Of a stretch of DNA of 64,000 nucleotides, positions 2,492-29,422 are shown piece by piece. A model generated the notes under the pieces. The model was not told where the DNA came from. It did not search any database and saw only the letters and a program-made list of their open reading frames with translations. Source of the DNA: Escherichia coli. Its GTDB lineage: Bacteria; Pseudomonadota; Gammaproteobacteria; Enterobacterales; Enterobacteriaceae. The translations under genes and the position numbers were made by a program. The stretch lies in NCBI RefSeq assembly GCF_003018235.1, contig NZ_CP027437.1; one strand, written 5' to 3'. Each line of letters begins with the position of its first letter. Positions within the stretch are counted from its first letter, which is position 1.

Positions 2492-3340
2492 ATGAAACTC
2501 TATGCCCAGGGCACTTCACTGGACCTTAGCCATCCTCACGTAATGGGGATCCTCAACGTCACGCCTGATTCCTTTTCGGATGGCGGCACGCATAACTCGC
2601 TGATAGATGCGGTGAAACATGCGAATCTGATGATCAACGCTGGCGCGACGATCATTGACGTTGGTGGTGAGTCCACGCGCCCAGGGGCGGCGGAAGTTAG
2701 CGTTGAAGAAGAGTTGCAACGTGTTATTCCTGTGGTTGAGGCAATTGCTCAACGCTTCGAAGTCTGGATCTCGGTAGATACATCCAAACCAGAAGTCATC
2801 CGTGAGTCAGCGAAAGTTGGCGCTCACATTATTAACGATATCCGCTCCCTTTCCGAACCAGGGGCTCTGGAGGCAGCTGCAGAAACCGGTTTACCGGTTT
2901 GTCTGATGCATATGCAGGGAAATCCAAAGACCATGCAGGAAGCCCCGAAGTATGACGATGTCTTTGCAGAAGTGAATCGCTATTTTATTGAGCAAATAGC
3001 ACGTTGCGAGCAGGCGGGTATCGCAAAAGAGAAATTGTTGCTCGACCCCGGATTCGGTTTCGGTAAAAATCTCTCCCATAACTATTCATTACTGGCGCGC
3101 CTGGCTGAATTTCACCATTTCAACCTGCCGCTGTTGGTGGGTATGTCACGAAAATCGATGATTGGGCAGCTGCTGAACGTGGGGCCGTCCGAGCGTCTGA
3201 GCGGTAGTCTGGCTTGTGCGGTCATTGCCGCTATGCAAGGCGCGCATATCATTCGTGTTCATGACGTCAAAGAAACCGTAGAAGCGATGCGGGTGGTGGA
3301 AGCCACTCTGTCTGCAAAGGAAAACAAACGCTATGAGTAA
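2492..3340 (+). CDS. folP: Dihydropteroate synthase
   Basis: ORF 2426..3340; N-terminus [32 protein letters not shown] from the ATG at 2492; 282 aa. Confidence 0.95.
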
Positions 3341-4670
3341 TCGTAAATATTTCGGTACCGATGGGATTCGTGGTCGTGTAGGGGATGCGCCGATCACCCC
3401 TGATTTTGTGCTTAAGCTGGGTTGGGCCGCGGGTAAAGTGCTGGCGCGCCACGGCTCCCGTAAGATCATTATTGGTAAAGACACACGTATTTCTGGCTAT
3501 ATGCTGGAGTCAGCACTGGAAGCGGGTCTGGCGGCTGCCGGTCTTTCCGCGCTCTTCACTGGCCCGATGCCAACACCGGCCGTGGCTTATCTGACGCGGA
3601 CTTTCCGCGCAGAGGCTGGGATTGTGATATCTGCATCGCATAACCCGTTCTACGATAATGGCATTAAATTTTTCTCTATCGACGGCACCAAACTACCGGA
3701 TGCAGTAGAAGAGGCCATCGAAGCGGAAATGGAAAAAGAGATCAGCTGTGTTGATTCGGCAGAACTGGGTAAAGCCAGCCGTATCGTTGATGCTGCGGGT
3801 CGCTATATCGAGTTTTGCAAAGCCACGTTCCCAAACGAACTTAGCCTCAGTGAACTGAAGATTGTGGTGGATTGTGCAAACGGTGCGACTTATCACATCG
3901 CGCCGAACGTGCTGCGTGAACTGGGAGCGAACGTTATCGCTATCGGTTGTGAGCCGAACGGTGTAAACATCAATGCCGAAGTGGGGGCTACCGACGTTCG
4001 CGCGCTCCAGGCCCGTGTGCTGGCTGAAAAAGCGGATCTCGGTATTGCCTTTGACGGCGACGGCGATCGCGTGATTATGGTTGACCATGAAGGCAATAAA
4101 GTCGATGGCGATCAGATCATGTATATCATCGCGCGTGAAGGTCTTCGTCAGGGCCAGCTGCGTGGTGGCGCTGTGGGTACATTGATGAGCAACATGGGGC
4201 TTGAACTGGCGCTGAAACAGTTAGGAATTCCATTTGCGCGCGCGAAAGTGGGTGACCGCTACGTACTGGAAAAAATGCAGGAGAAAGGCTGGCGTATCGG
4301 TGCAGAGAATTCCGGTCATGTGATCCTGCTGGATAAAACCACTACCGGTGACGGCATCGTTGCTGGCTTGCAGGTGCTGGCGGCGATGGCGCGTAACCAT
4401 ATGAGCCTGCACGATCTTTGCAGCGGCATGAAAATGTTCCCGCAGATTCTTGTTAACGTGCGTTACACCGCAGGTAGCGGCGATCCGCTGGAGCATGAAT
4501 CAGTCAAAGCTGTGACCGCAGAAGTTGAAGCGGCGCTGGGTAGCCGTGGACGTGTGCTGTTGCGTAAATCCGGCACCGAACCGTTAATTCGCGTGATGGT
4601 GGAAGGTGAAGACGAAGCGCAGGTGACTGAATTTGCACACCGCATCGCTGATGCAGTAAAAGCCGTTTAA
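3333..4670 (+). CDS. glmM: Phosphoglucosamine mutase
   Basis: 445-aa ORF; [15 protein letters not shown]-terminus and active-site SASHNP motif; overlaps the folP stop. Confidence 0.97.
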
Positions 4671-24039: not shown

Positions 24040-25035
24040 TCACTGCCATTTACGGTGATACGCGCCAAGGGTGGTCTGCGTGCCTTCGGACATCGACCCG
24101 AGCGTCTCCATCCACGCGCTTTGCGGTACGAAGTTTTGCGGATCGGCCTTACAACGGTCGATAGCCTGACGCCAGACTTTCGCCACCTGGCTGACATACG
24201 CCGGGCTACGCTGGCGGCCTTCAATTTTCACCGAAGCAATATTCGCTGCCATTAACTCCGGCAGCAGTTCCAGGGTATTGAGACTGGTGGGTCCTTCCAG
24301 CGCGTGATAGCGCTCGCCGTCCACCAGATAACGCCCTTTACACAGCGTCGGATAACCTGCGTTTTCGCCGTCCTGATAACGGTCGATCAGCACTTCGTTC
24401 AGGCGGGATTCCAGCCCCTGCGGCGTTTGCTGCCAGCGCACGAAGCGAGCCGGAGAACATGCACCGACGGTGTTGGGCGATTCACCCGTCAGATATGACG
24501 ACAGATAGCAACGGCCTTCCGACATAATGCACAGGCTGCCGAAAGCAAAGACTTCCAGTGGTACAGGCGTGACCCGCGCCAGTTGTTTCACCTGATGAAT
24601 CGACAACACGCGCGGCAGCACCACGCGTGCAACGTCAAAATGGCGATGATAAAAGTTAATCGCCTCTTCATTGGTCGCCGAAGCCTGCACTGACACATGA
24701 CGCTCAATATGCGGGTAACGCTCGGCGGCGTACTCCAGCATGGCGAGGTCGGCGAGGATCAGCGCGTCGGCACCCAGCTGCGCCGCCATATCCACGGCGC
24801 GCTGCCAACGGGCGTAACCGTCCGGATGCGCAAAAGTGTTAATCGCGATGTGAAGTTTGCGGCGATGTTGATGGACAAAACTCACCGCTTCCTGCAATTT
24901 TTTCTCGGTAAAGTTAAGGCCGGCGAAGTGACGGGCATTGGTATCATCTTTTAGCCCGATATAAACAGCATCTGCGCCGTTTTCGATGGCCGCCTTAAGC
25001 GCCGGGAGATTTCCGGCAGGGCAGAGCAGCTCCAT
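24040..25035 (-). CDS. ubiU: U32-family protein, anaerobic ubiquinone biosynthesis (UbiU/YhbU)
   Basis: ORF 24040..25062; known N-terminus MELLCPAGNLPALKAAIENGADAVYIG; 331 aa. Confidence 0.9.
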   Translation of the reverse strand: MELLCPAGNLPALKAAIENGADAVYIGLKDDTNARHFAGLNFTEKKLQEAVSFVHQHRRKLHIAINTFAHPDGYARWQRAVDMAAQLGADALILADLAMLEYAAERYPHIERHVSVQASATNEEAINFYHRHFDVARVVLPRVLSIHQVKQLARVTPVPLEVFAFGSLCIMSEGRCYLSSYLTGESPNTVGACSPARFVRWQQTPQGLESRLNEVLIDRYQDGENAGYPTLCKGRYLVDGERYHALEGPTSLNTLELLPELMAANIASVKIEGRQRSPAYVSQVAKVWRQAIDRCKADPQNFVPQSAWMETLGSMSEGTQTTLGAYHRKWQ

Positions 25036-25243
25036 AATTTTTCCTGAAGGTTGCGCTATCAAAACGCAAAAATGTTAACGAACTGGGATTTTAGTTAACC
25101 TTGCTGCGACAATTTTTGATTTAAGGCAGTTAAAGTTGTATTGGTGGTAGCAGCAATTTCATATGGAATTGTTGATTTATACCGCTATGTTATTTTTCTG
25201 ATATGGCAAAATAGGATGATTGTTGAAACAGGGAGTAAAACTC

Positions 25244-25768
25244 GTGTTGGATAAACTGCGTTCCCGTATTGTGCATTTGGGGCCATCTCTGTTGAGTGTA
25301 CCGGTAAAACTGACGCCATTTGCGCTAAAACGCCAGGTTCTTGAGCAGGTCTTAAGCTGGCAATTCCGTCAGGCGCTGGATGATGGCGAGCTGGAGTTTC
25401 TTGAAGGCCGCTGGTTAAGTATTCATGTGCGTGATATTGACCTGCAATGGTTTACCTCGGTGGTGAATGGCAAACTGGTCGTTAGCCAGAACGCGCAAGC
25501 TGATGTGAGTTTTAGTGCCGACGCCAGCGATCTGCTGATGATTGCGGCGCGTAAACAAGATCCGGATACGCTCTTCTTCCAGCGTCGGCTGGTGATTGAA
25601 GGCGATACGGAGCTGGGGCTGTATGTGAAAAACCTGATGGACGCCATTGAACTGGAGCAAATGCCGAAAGCCTTACGCATGATGCTGCTGCAACTGGCGG
25701 ATTTTGTTGAGGCGGGAATGAAAACCGCGCCTGAAACCAAACAGACATCGGTAGGTGAACCATGCTAA
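25244..25768 (+). CDS. ubiT: SCP2-domain protein UbiT (YhbT)
   Basis: ORF 25220..25768; probable GTG start giving MLDKLRSRIVHLGPSLLSVPVKL; divergent from ubiUV. Confidence 0.85.
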   Translation: MLDKLRSRIVHLGPSLLSVPVKLTPFALKRQVLEQVLSWQFRQALDDGELEFLEGRWLSIHVRDIDLQWFTSVVNGKLVVSQNAQADVSFSADASDLLMIAARKQDPDTLFFQRRLVIEGDTELGLYVKNLMDAIELEQMPKALRMMLLQLADFVEAGMKTAPETKQTSVGEPC

Positions 25769-26265
25769 TTCGAGTAGAAATTCCCATTGATGCGCCGGGT
25801 ATTGATGCCCTGCTGCGTCGTTCATTCGAAAGTGATGCGGAAGCGAAGCTGGTTCACGATCTGCGTGAAGATGGCTTTCTGACGTTGGGGCTGGTGGCGA
25901 CAGATGACGAAGGTCAGGTCATTGGCTATGTGGCATTTAGTCCGGTTGATGTGCAGGGCGAAGACCTGCAATGGGTCGGCATGGCACCGCTGGCGGTAGA
26001 TGAAAAATACCGTGGACAGGGGCTGGCACGCCAACTGGTCTATGAAGGACTCGATTCGCTCAATGAGTTCGGCTATGCCGCAGTGGTGACGCTGGGCGAT
26101 CCGGCGCTGTACAGTCGTTTCGGCTTTGAACTGGCGGCTCATCACGATCTGCGTTGCCGCTGGCCGGGCACTGAAAGCGCCTTCCAGGTACATCGTTTAG
26201 CGGATGACGCGCTGAACGGCGTAACCGGTCTGGTTGAGTATCACGAGCATTTCAATCGCTTTTAA
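25762..26265 (+). CDS. yhbS: GNAT-family N-acetyltransferase YhbS
   Basis: 167-aa ORF; GNAT acetyl-CoA binding region (..[15 protein letters not shown]..). Confidence 0.9.
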
Positions 26266-26554
26266 TCTCCGGGGTTTGCAGGCTGCTCAACAGCTCTGCA
26301 AACCCTGCGCCTTCCGCTACCAGACGTTCTTTTTGCCGTTTGGTCAGTTGCTTAACGCGATATTCTGCCCGTAACGCCAGCGAACGATCGCCCACTGGCG
26401 CGGAAAACGCCAGCGTTAGTTCTCCTTTCCCGCGCAGTGCTTTCGCCCCTTTGCCGCTTTGGTGCTGCTGATAGCGGCGTTCGACATCTGTGGTGATCCC
26501 GGTATAAAGCTTATTGTCGGCGGTACGGATCAAGTAAAGAAACCAGGGTGTCAT
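26252..26554 (-). CDS. yhbQ: GIY-YIG domain protein YhbQ (UPF0213)
   Basis: 100-aa ORF with [28 protein letters not shown], a GIY-YIG nuclease-like motif. Confidence 0.9.
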
Positions 26555-26604
26555 CGTCTGCGTCGCATGTTAAGGTCAGGCCCACAGTATAAAAGAGAAC
26601 AGCA

Positions 26605-27027
26605 ATGGAAACACTCACCGCCATCAGCCGTTGGCTGGCAAAACAACATGTTGTCACCTGGTGTGTGCAGCAGGAAGGGGAACTCTGGTGCGCTAATGCC
26701 TTTTATCTTTTTGATGCGCAGAAAGTCGCCTTCTACATTTTGACGGAAGAAAAAACGCGCCACGCGCAGATGAGTGGGCCGCAGGCTGCGGTTGCCGGAA
26801 CGGTAAACGGTCAGCCGAAAACGGTAGCGTTAATTCGCGGCGTGCAATTTAAAGGCGAGATCCGCAGGCTTGAAGGTGAGGAAAGCGACCTCGCACGCAA
26901 GGCGTACAACCGTCGCTTTCCGGTTGCCAGAATGCTGTCGGCCCCGGTATGGGAAATCCGGCTCGATGAAATCAAATTCACCGACAACACGCTGGGCTTT
27001 GGTAAAAAAATGATTTGGCTACGTAAC

Positions 27028-27048
<21 letters not shown>
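26605..27048 (+). CDS. yhbP: Pyridoxamine 5'-phosphate oxidase-like (FMN-binding split barrel) protein YhbP
   Basis: 147-aa [31 protein letters not shown]. Confidence 0.88.
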
Positions 27049-27558
<510 letters not shown>

Positions 27559-27559
27559 A

Positions 27560-28309
<750 letters not shown>

Positions 28310-28381
28310 TTATTCCCAAGAATTGATAGTGAGCGTAATATTCACGCGCTCAATTATCATAACTTATTCCTGGGGAATGCT

Positions 28382-29422
28382 ATGACTGGTCAGTCTTCAT
28401 CTCAGGCGGCAACGCCCATTCAGTGGTGGAAACCCGCGCTTTTCTTTCTCGTTGTCATTGCTGGTCTCTGGTATGTGAAATGGCAACCTTACTACGGCAA
28501 AGCGTTTACTGCTGCCGAAACCCACAGTATCGGTAAATCTATCCTTGCGCAGGCTGATGCTAATCCGTGGCAGGCGGCGTTGGATTACGCGATGATCTAT
28601 TTCCTCGCGGTATGGAAAGCGGCGGTGCTGGGCGTACTGCTCGGGTCGTTGATTCAGGTGCTGATCCCGCGTGACTGGTTGCTGCGTACGCTTGGGCAAT
28701 CGCGCTTTCGCGGCACGCTGCTGGGAACGCTGTTTTCGCTGCCGGGCATGATGTGTACCTGCTGTGCGGCTCCGGTCGCGGCGGGAATGCGTCGCCAACA
28801 GGTGTCGATGGGCGGTGCGCTGGCATTCTGGATGGGGAATCCGTTGTTAAACCCGGCGACGCTGGTGTTTATGGGGTTTGTCCTCGGCTGGGGGTTTGCG
28901 GCGATTCGTCTGGTGGCGGGGCTGGTGATGGTGTTGCTGATTGCGACGCTGGTGCAAAAATGGGTACGTGAAACACCGCTAACGCAGGCACCGGTCGAAA
29001 TTGACATACCGGAAGCGCAGGGCGGATTTTTTAGCCGCTGGGGCAGGGCGCTATGGACGCTTTTCTGGAGTACGATCCCGGTTTACATCCTTGCAGTACT
29101 GGTGTTGGGTGCCGCTCGCGTCTGGTTATTCCCCCATGCTGATGGTGCTGTCGATAACAGCCTGATGTGGGTGATTGCGATGGCGGTAGCGGGATGCTTG
29201 TTTGTCATTCCCACGGCGGCAGAAATTCCAATTGTACAAACGATGATGCTGGCAGGCATGGGAACCGCTCCGGCGCTGGCATTGTTGATGACGCTCCCGG
29301 CGGTGAGTTTGCCGTCACTGATTATGCTGCGCAAAGCGTTCCCGGCGAAAGCCTTATGGCTGACAGGGGCGATGGTGGCAGTGTCTGGTGTGATTGTCGG
29401 CGGGTTGGCGCTGTTGGCCTAA
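28382..29422 (+). CDS. yraQ: Putative permease YraQ (multi-pass membrane protein)
   Basis: 346-aa hydrophobic ORF. Confidence 0.9.
   Translation: MTGQSSSQAATPIQWWKPALFFLVVIAGLWYVKWQPYYGKAFTAAETHSIGKSILAQADANPWQAALDYAMIYFLAVWKAAVLGVLLGSLIQVLIPRDWLLRTLGQSRFRGTLLGTLFSLPGMMCTCCAAPVAAGMRRQQVSMGGALAFWMGNPLLNPATLVFMGFVLGWGFAAIRLVAGLVMVLLIATLVQKWVRETPLTQAPVEIDIPEAQGGFFSRWGRALWTLFWSTIPVYILAVLVLGAARVWLFPHADGAVDNSLMWVIAMAVAGCLFVIPTAAEIPIVQTMMLAGMGTAPALALLMTLPAVSLPSLIMLRKAFPAKALWLTGAMVAVSGVIVGGLALLA

Follow-up and report, generated by a model that had tools for sequence, protein, structure and literature searches.

The DNA analysed here is a 64,000-nucleotide stretch of Escherichia coli (the window), in which ubiT (yhbT), yhbS, yhbQ, yhbP and yhbO lie directly beside one another (Table 1). 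Our open reading frame list and our reading of the sequence agree, in both coordinates and gene names, with the RefSeq annotation of a record of 99.9% identity. That record and the window stay in register from about 22.5 kb to about 32.5 kb and not beyond; an internal stop that the record annotates in agaB came out of register on translation in the window and was set aside. The first 7 nt of yhbS, a gene in the same orientation, also form the 3′ end of ubiT. The yhbS gene ends in TAA at 26263–26265, and yhbQ, which converges on it, ends in TGA, the reverse complement of the TCA at 26252–26254. All three sources place the genes yhbS, yhbQ and yhbP, their orientations and the 14-nt overlap exactly, to the base, where a sequence-only reading of this DNA had put them. 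The 21-nt overlap of yhbP with yhbO, which converges on it in the same manner, did not appear in that reading.

Because a convergent overlap is defined by two stop codons and not by the choice of start codons, neither of these overlaps can be an artefact. In the yhbS/yhbQ pair, the stop codons are unambiguous, both open reading frames match their homologues from end to end, and the YhbS chain of PDB 4RS2 finishes on the identical last residue; an annotation artefact behind this overlap therefore has next to no chance of being the explanation. The start codons of yhbQ and yhbP are divergent, and a sigma-70 scan of the short spacer between them found no sigma-70 consensus. This spacer is 49–55 nt long in 74 of 79 species, and its aligned sequence is weakly conserved. 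A search of the region against Rfam returned no family; a sub-threshold match to CRISPR-DR22 at 25176–25212 (E 0.24) was taken as chance.

Table 1. Genes and other features of the segment, with positions in the window
Feature	Position	Strand	Size	Description and basis
ubiT (yhbT)	25244–25768	+		RefSeq; SCP2 domain (Pfam 8e-20); heads the ubiT-yhbS operon
yhbS (hqbA)	25762–26265	+	167 aa	GNAT acetyltransferase binding Hfq
yhbQ	26252–26554	−	100 aa	Stand-alone GIY-YIG nuclease domain, assigned by sequence to the Slx1/UPF0213 lineage
yhbP	26605–27048	+	147 aa	PNPOx/HugZ-like split beta-barrel
yhbO	27028–27546	−		DJ-1/PfpI-family protein/nucleic acid deglycase; PF01965 (1e-56), TIGR01382, RefSeq name
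yhbS/yhbQ coding overlap, tail-to-tail	26252–26265		14 nt	Sequence
yhbP/yhbO coding overlap, tail-to-tail	27028–27048		21 nt	Open reading frame list, sequence, RefSeq
Spacer between divergent yhbQ and yhbP start codons	26555–26604		50 nt	Sequence
Hairpin	26270–26307	both strands folded	16 bp	One bulge, 5-nt loop; 4 nt past the yhbS stop, within yhbQ codons ~83–95
Published Rho-dependent termination region	~27418	+ (yhbP strand)		On the strand opposite yhbO; 370 nt downstream of the yhbP stop

Conservation and frequency of the arrangement

Of 5426 complete E. coli genomes, 5424 gave a megablast match to a 3.4-kb region spanning these genes, which places the region in the core genome. We then surveyed one genome per species and recovered 80 Enterobacteriaceae loci, 79 of which could be scored for overlaps. 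The order ubiT-yhbS/yhbQ/yhbP was kept in all 80, in keeping with the earlier statement that these are conserved E. coli genes and not an insertion. The yhbS/yhbQ overlap measured 14 nt in 65 of the scorable species, 4 nt in seven, 17 nt in four and 25 nt in one, and the remaining two had none. At the other end of the segment, 31 species have a yhbP/yhbO overlap of 21 nt and 13 have one of 15 nt; no intact yhbO was found at 32 of the 80 loci. At some of these, remnants of the gene point to deletions.

The sequence-only reading had also called the tight antisense overlap unusual. E. coli has been reported to have 663 overlapping adjacent gene pairs, 75 of them convergent (Huvet and Stumpf, PMC4161906). 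By rough extrapolation, with convergent pairs making up about 14% of 4131 adjacent pairs, roughly an eighth of convergent pairs overlap. In addition, the 165 convergent excludons described in MG1655 include both yhbQ-yhbS and yhbO-yhbP (ExcludonFinder, PMC12288877). The matching RefSeq record has seven convergent pairs in the 50 kb around the locus, and coding overlap was found only in the two described here. Convergent coding overlap is thus a minority case, and two in succession are locally notable yet not exceptional; given the 75 convergent overlaps and the listing of both pairs as excludons, 'unusual' is too strong a word for an arrangement that is uncommon but does not stand apart.

Identity of the encoded proteins

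YhbS matched several GNAT models (PF00583 at 8e-12), and its residues 2–167 align to the E. coli structure PDB 4RS2 with zero mismatches. The protein first came to notice by silencing Hfq-dependent sRNA signalling and was later given the name HqbA: it is a direct Hfq binder and tunes the RNA repertoire of Hfq, restricting the weak RNA binders with no need for acetylation (PMC10710024). The gene described under that name (PNAS 2023) and yhbS of the window are the same, with no differences between them. By RT-PCR, ubiT and yhbS form a single transcription unit under the control of Fnr (PMC10470549), through which ubiT is induced ~35-fold anaerobically (PMC10710024). A further promoter for yhbS probably lies within ubiT, and yhbS plays no role in ubiquinone synthesis (PMC10470549, PMC10710024).

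YhbQ matched PF01541 over residues 4–76 (E 8.6e-16; 58.5 bits against a cut-off of 22.6). The GIY-YIG catalytic set, consisting of the two motif tyrosines, an arginine, a histidine and the metal-binding glutamate, is present, and residues Y7, Y17, G19, R27, H31 and E64 are invariant among 14 aligned sequences that include both of its PDB relatives. These two, its nearest relatives with a solved structure, are UPF0213 proteins studied by NMR: 1ZG2 (BH0048; phmmer 3e-17) and 1YWL (EF2693). A structural model of YhbQ (pLDDT 87) gave the same picture, with Foldseek ranking 1ZG2 and 1YWL ahead of Slx1 proteins (6SEH, 7CQ2 and 4XM5) and then I-TevI. Like YhbQ, the UPF0213 proteins are ~100 aa long, have a single domain with the catalytic Tyr/Tyr/Arg/His/Glu and lack a conserved C-terminal Asn; the YhbQ alignment contained neither an invariant Asn at that end nor an extra domain. 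These are the traits set out for the stand-alone prokaryotic branch of Slx1 (PMC1564403). Eukaryotic Slx1 differs in having a RING/PHD finger and a Slx4 partner, both of which YhbQ is without, and the Ssn site-specific ssDNA nucleases (cd10448) have been described as a family apart from Slx1. By its sequence and modelled fold, YhbQ is assigned to this prokaryotic stand-alone Slx1 branch (UPF0213). In the RefSeq and K-12 records, it carries the curated name 'DNA damage response exodeoxyribonuclease/nuclease', and under that name it is a DNA-damage-response nuclease.

YhbP matched the equivalog model NCBIfam NF002900 at 3e-80, and an exhaustive search retrieved 741 YhbP representatives at E ≤ 0.001. 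The E. coli protein itself hit no Pfam family even at E ≤ 1, and phmmer against the PDB returned chance matches only; among 91 aligned relatives, 64 matched PNPOx_N (PF01243; best 2e-13), and the profile of the family weakly matched 2HTI, 2ARZ and HutZ. Its AlphaFold (AF2) model has a pLDDT of 95.7 and retrieved 149 PDB matches with Foldseek at E ≤ 0.001 (best E 2e-8, TM 0.73), the top matches listed all having the split-barrel fold. The structural neighbours include PA4388 (2ARZ), the haem binders MSMEG_6519, HugZ, ChuZ and HutZ, and proteins annotated as 'PNPOx-like'. YhbP thus has the fold of the PNPOx-like FMN-binding split-barrel superfamily, to which the haem-binding HugZ, ChuZ and HutZ belong, at a TM of ~0.7 but a sequence identity of only 10–19% and with no Pfam match of its own. 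At the level of fold and superfamily, judged from the model and from the sequences of its relatives, YhbP is PNPOx-like. Residues H53, Q81 and K124 of YhbP are invariant. The protein probably binds flavin or haem; its K-12 annotation is 'putative FMN binding protein'.

The labels originally given to the three proteins from the sequence are borne out: GNAT for YhbS by the Pfam match and the 4RS2 alignment, a stand-alone GIY-YIG domain for the 100-aa YhbQ by PF01541 and the catalytic residues, and PNPOx-like for YhbP by fold and relatives only. The accompanying remark that their functions are poorly defined still applies to YhbP only, as it does not hold for YhbS, which is HqbA (PMC10710024), or for YhbQ, which has a curated name.

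The constant proximity of an acetyltransferase, a nuclease and a putative flavoprotein raises the possibility that the trio is a single functional module, such as a DNA-repair or defence cassette. Their adjacency in 80 Enterobacteriaceae species favours such a module, as does the persistence of the divergent GIY-YIG/yhbP pair at 46–50% YhbP identity. However, the three genes belong to separate transcription units in opposing orientations, PADLOC assigned no family to YhbS, YhbQ or YhbP, and HqbA has an established and unrelated partner in Hfq. Furthermore, deletion of yhbQ or yhbP from a plasmid clone of YhbS had little or no effect on the YhbS overexpression phenotype. In a lineage at 50% YhbP identity, the ubiT-yhbS/GIY-YIG arrangement is kept (with a 22-nt overlap), an inserted gene parts yhbP from it, and yhbP overlaps nrdG by 20 nt, not yhbO. 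Homologues of YhbP with no more than 41% identity sit among unrelated genes, and a deep functional cluster was rejected on these grounds. We regard a single module as very improbable; the evidence says that YhbS, YhbQ and YhbP are functionally unrelated. HqbA is a GNAT protein acting on the distal face of Hfq; YhbQ, going by its curated name, is a minimal GIY-YIG DNA nuclease of the Slx1 lineage; and YhbP is a split barrel of the PNPOx/HugZ type.

Origin of the overlaps and the hairpin past yhbS

To compare the ends of these proteins with the rest, we calculated per-residue conservation from 76–80 sequences per protein. Residues 1–80 of YhbQ are conserved at 77–95%, compared with only 42–54% for the tail (residues 81–100); in YhbP, conservation extends up to W138-L-R140 and falls to 26% over residues 141–147. 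The pLDDT is low at YhbQ 94–100 and at YhbP 141–147. The YhbQ tail, which sets the protein apart from its UPF0213 relatives, is Enterobacteriaceae-specific and is encoded across the hairpin and the adjoining gene. Its indels come in multiples of three, such that YhbQ varies from 95 to 104 aa with the overlap constant at 14 nt. Natural alleles of yhbQ with in-frame deletions, coding for 89 aa and 92 aa, also occur. YhbP is ~140–142 aa long in most species without an intact yhbO.

On the opposite strand, the C-terminal HFNRF of YhbS is conserved at 83–100% (76 sequences). The yhbQ stop codon is the antisense of three bases in this motif, the last two of the Phe codon and the first of the Asn codon, and TTY-AAT read on the opposite strand gives TGA or TAA (TRA), invariably a stop. 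That 65 of 79 species share an overlap of 14 nt is explained by the conserved Phe-Asn codons of YhbS, which force the antisense stop of yhbQ; as long as YhbS retains Phe-Asn and the yhbQ frame is kept, yhbQ must end there. Given the contrast in conservation, the indels and the shorter YhbP in species without yhbO, tails running into more constrained neighbours are the best reading of both overlaps, and extension of the 3′ end has already been proposed as a route to convergent overlaps. The C-terminal tails, weakly constrained and apparently disordered in both YhbQ and YhbP, would read into the conserved gene opposite, up to the first stop met in frame, which would make the overlaps a by-product of run-on tails and not special coding devices.

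Just past the yhbS stop lies a hairpin that extends a perfect 10-nt inverted repeat. It folds at −27 kcal/mol (z −5.3) on the + strand and at −25 kcal/mol (z −3.5) on the − strand. Like an intrinsic terminator, it is a G+C-rich stem-loop right after a stop codon. However, there is no U-tract 3′ of the stem, where the sequence is UGCGCCUUCC on the + strand and GGAGAUUAA on the − strand, and the terminator scan did not pick it up; a canonical intrinsic (Rho-independent) terminator at this site was rejected as the U-tract is missing on both strands. Terminator-like matches of the scan at 27085–27103 in yhbO and 26395–26413 in yhbQ were not supported. Presumably, the hairpin is akin to the protective 3′ stem-loops that remain after Rho termination and exonuclease trimming, which it resembles.

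Across species, the stem retained 72% paired cells, compared with 64% when shuffled and 26–53% when slid, and one of its pairs covaries, being split between GC in 26 and CG in 22. When each species was folded separately, a stable hairpin (z ≤ −2) was present in 39 of 79. Its 5′ arm is deleted in Klebsiella, Enterobacter, Kluyvera, Raoultella and Pseudocitrobacter, and Buttiauxella, Franconibacter and others have equally stable, unrelated-looking hairpins at the same position. RNAalifold found no consensus structure over 78 aligned 3′ junctions, which shows that the hairpin is not universal. We infer for it a role, in some lineages, in marking or protecting the ubiT-hqbA mRNA at its 3′ end. Past the yhbP stop, folding gave a median z of −0.9 (48 species).

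Transcription of the convergent pairs

Because their coding sequences overlap, the mRNAs of each convergent pair must overlap as sense/antisense pairs. Both pairs are therefore what is termed an excludon, opposite-strand neighbours with overlapping transcripts, and both are listed in Table 1 of ExcludonFinder. They share with the other convergent excludons of MG1655 in that set neighbouring genes on opposite strands with 3′ transcript overlap; what differs here is that the coding sequences overlap too, not merely the UTRs. A Rho-dependent termination region has been published on the yhbP strand (Adams et al. 2021, supplementary file 2: MG1655 3299102 (−), 'antisense yhbO', score 4.79, significance 2.7e-9), and we placed it in the window through its offset from the yhbP stop in MG1655 coordinates. 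The same supplements, searched by name and by coordinate, list no transcript ends for yhbS, yhbQ or yhbP, and those of SMRT-Cappable-seq contain nothing matching for the locus.

The segment thus has four transcription units on alternating strands: ubiT-yhbS (hqbA) is read to the right, yhbQ to the left, yhbP to the right and yhbO to the left, and no intergenic space is left at the 3′ ends. Termination would then fall inside the opposite gene and, on the yhbP strand, would be Rho-dependent. The hairpin just past the yhbS stop is probably the point where the ubiT-yhbS transcript ends or to which it is trimmed. Taken together, we consider it very probable that this is a compact, vertically inherited core segment of the Enterobacteriaceae that encodes three unrelated proteins, whose run-on tails lead to convergent transcription of the excludon type.

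The overlap could also be a selected regulatory switch, that is, a true excludon, in which Fnr-driven transcription of ubiT-hqbA into yhbQ silences the nuclease gene. Silencing would occur by collision of polymerases or by RNase III cleavage of the duplex, the hairpin would serve as a roadblock or 3′ stabiliser, and yhbP and yhbO would behave likewise. Such a switch would fit the presence of both pairs in the core set of ExcludonFinder (at least 50% of 58 transcriptomes) and the ~35-fold induction of ubiT by Fnr without oxygen. Some overlap is kept in 77 of 79 species, but its conservation at 14 nt is fully accounted for by the constraint on the YhbS C-terminus, and its length drifts (4, 14, 17 and 25 nt) and is lost in two species. 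The covariation and high stability of the hairpin would likewise suit a regulatory element, yet the hairpin is lost in many genera. That two of the seven convergent pairs in the surrounding 50 kb overlap, and that these two are adjacent to each other, makes the locus locally unusual; reciprocal expression data for these pairs, however, were not found in the searchable literature. We therefore judge a selected switch to be unlikely, and the regulatory-excludon reading is without direct support here, although it is compatible with, and not exclusive of, run-on tails in a conserved core segment.

Less likely still is an extended form of the switch, in which ubiT-hqbA, yhbQ, yhbP and yhbO would be chained by antisense transcription, such that strong, Fnr-driven anaerobic read-through from ubiT-hqbA past the hairpin shuts off the nuclease gene yhbQ, and expression of the stress deglycase gene yhbO opposes that of yhbP. 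If true, gene geometry alone would tie DNA-damage and glycation-repair functions to the oxygen status of the cell.

The genes, their families, the ubiT-yhbS operon and the transcript overlap of both pairs were already known from databases and papers. The locus is ordinary, annotated core chromosome, and the finding is of little consequence. What our analysis adds is a simple reason for the frozen 14 nt, an account of both overlaps as run-on disordered tails, and a hairpin that varies among lineages. For work on these genes, the geometry means that the 3′ end of yhbQ or yhbP inevitably changes when yhbS or yhbO is cleanly deleted or tagged at its C-terminus.

Overlaps and potential RNA structures around yhbS–yhbO

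The coordinates of two coding overlaps, a hairpin, and a second inverted repeat in this region are compiled in the table below. The same-strand overlap of ubiT and yhbS is consistent with translational coupling in an operon. At the other end of the cluster, the convergent overlap of yhbP and yhbO, which the sequence-only reading did not mention, places the YhbP tail (S142–A147) antisense to the coding end of the YhbO C-terminus.

Overlaps and inverted repeats between ubiT and yhbO (window coordinates)
Feature	Position	Size or arms	Location
ubiT/yhbS same-strand overlap	25762–25768	7 nt	
Hairpin, very stable	26270–26307	16 bp	directly 3' of yhbS stop, within yhbQ coding sequence
Second perfect inverted repeat	26880–26921	10 nt; arms GGAAAGCGAC/GTCGCTTTCC, 22-nt loop	in yhbP
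yhbP/yhbO convergent coding overlap	27028–27048	21 nt	

The hairpin after yhbS lacks a U-tract. In some lineages its pairing covaries; other lineages have deleted it. Read along the minus strand, the repeat inside yhbP lies 107–148 nt past the yhbO stop, and the folding of this region is more stable in species that carry yhbO (median −21.5 kcal/mol; z ≤ −2 in 17 of 48) than in those without it (median −15.1 kcal/mol; z ≤ −2 in 2 of 31). The repeat may be incidental, because its arms code for conserved residues.

Strain background of the window

Over the 3.4 kb from 25000 to 28400, identity to the window reaches at least 99% in only 15 of the 5424 E. coli genomes and is 95–99% in the others; since so few match at this level, the identity data indicate that the window belongs to a less commonly sequenced lineage. 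The top matches were isolated from sediment and from a human. A plasmid record carries one of the 5429 matches to this interval. Base-for-base register with the RefSeq record NZ_LR778147.1 holds only at ~22.5–32.5 kb; beyond it, indels offset the coordinates, and its annotation is therefore not transferable by position there.

Gene loss and variation across Enterobacteriaceae

An intact yhbO was not found in 32 of the 80 Enterobacteriaceae species, among them E. albertii and E. whittamii (loci L005, L006, L007, L011, L012, L034, L056, and others). Short remnants persist at L005 (residues 135–155) and L047, and one E. coli strain (L003) has a frameshifted copy, which suggests that yhbO has been lost repeatedly. 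In a single assembly of Leclercia adecarboxylata NCTC13032 (L052), yhbS, yhbP, and yhbO each appear truncated or frameshifted, more likely reflecting sequencing error than biology.

The yhbS–yhbQ junction also varies. In an Enterobacter sp. (L055), additional DNA at about 3300–3414 of the locus opens a 113-nt gap between the two genes and thereby abolishes their overlap. Buttiauxella noackiae (L062) carries a related extra sequence (TCCCCATCATCTTTCGCGC...GCAGGGGTG) 3' of the yhbS stop, and its yhbQ ORF is longer.

Within E. coli, the natural YhbQ variants P0171 and P0174 (89/92 aa) and P0156 (92 aa) have in-frame deletions in the GIY-YIG core, missing either an 11-residue stretch or AKALRGKG; one deletion allele is present on eight contigs, including a 4.7-Mb genome. 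Such core deletions probably inactivate the nuclease, which suggests that yhbQ is dispensable in some E. coli strains.
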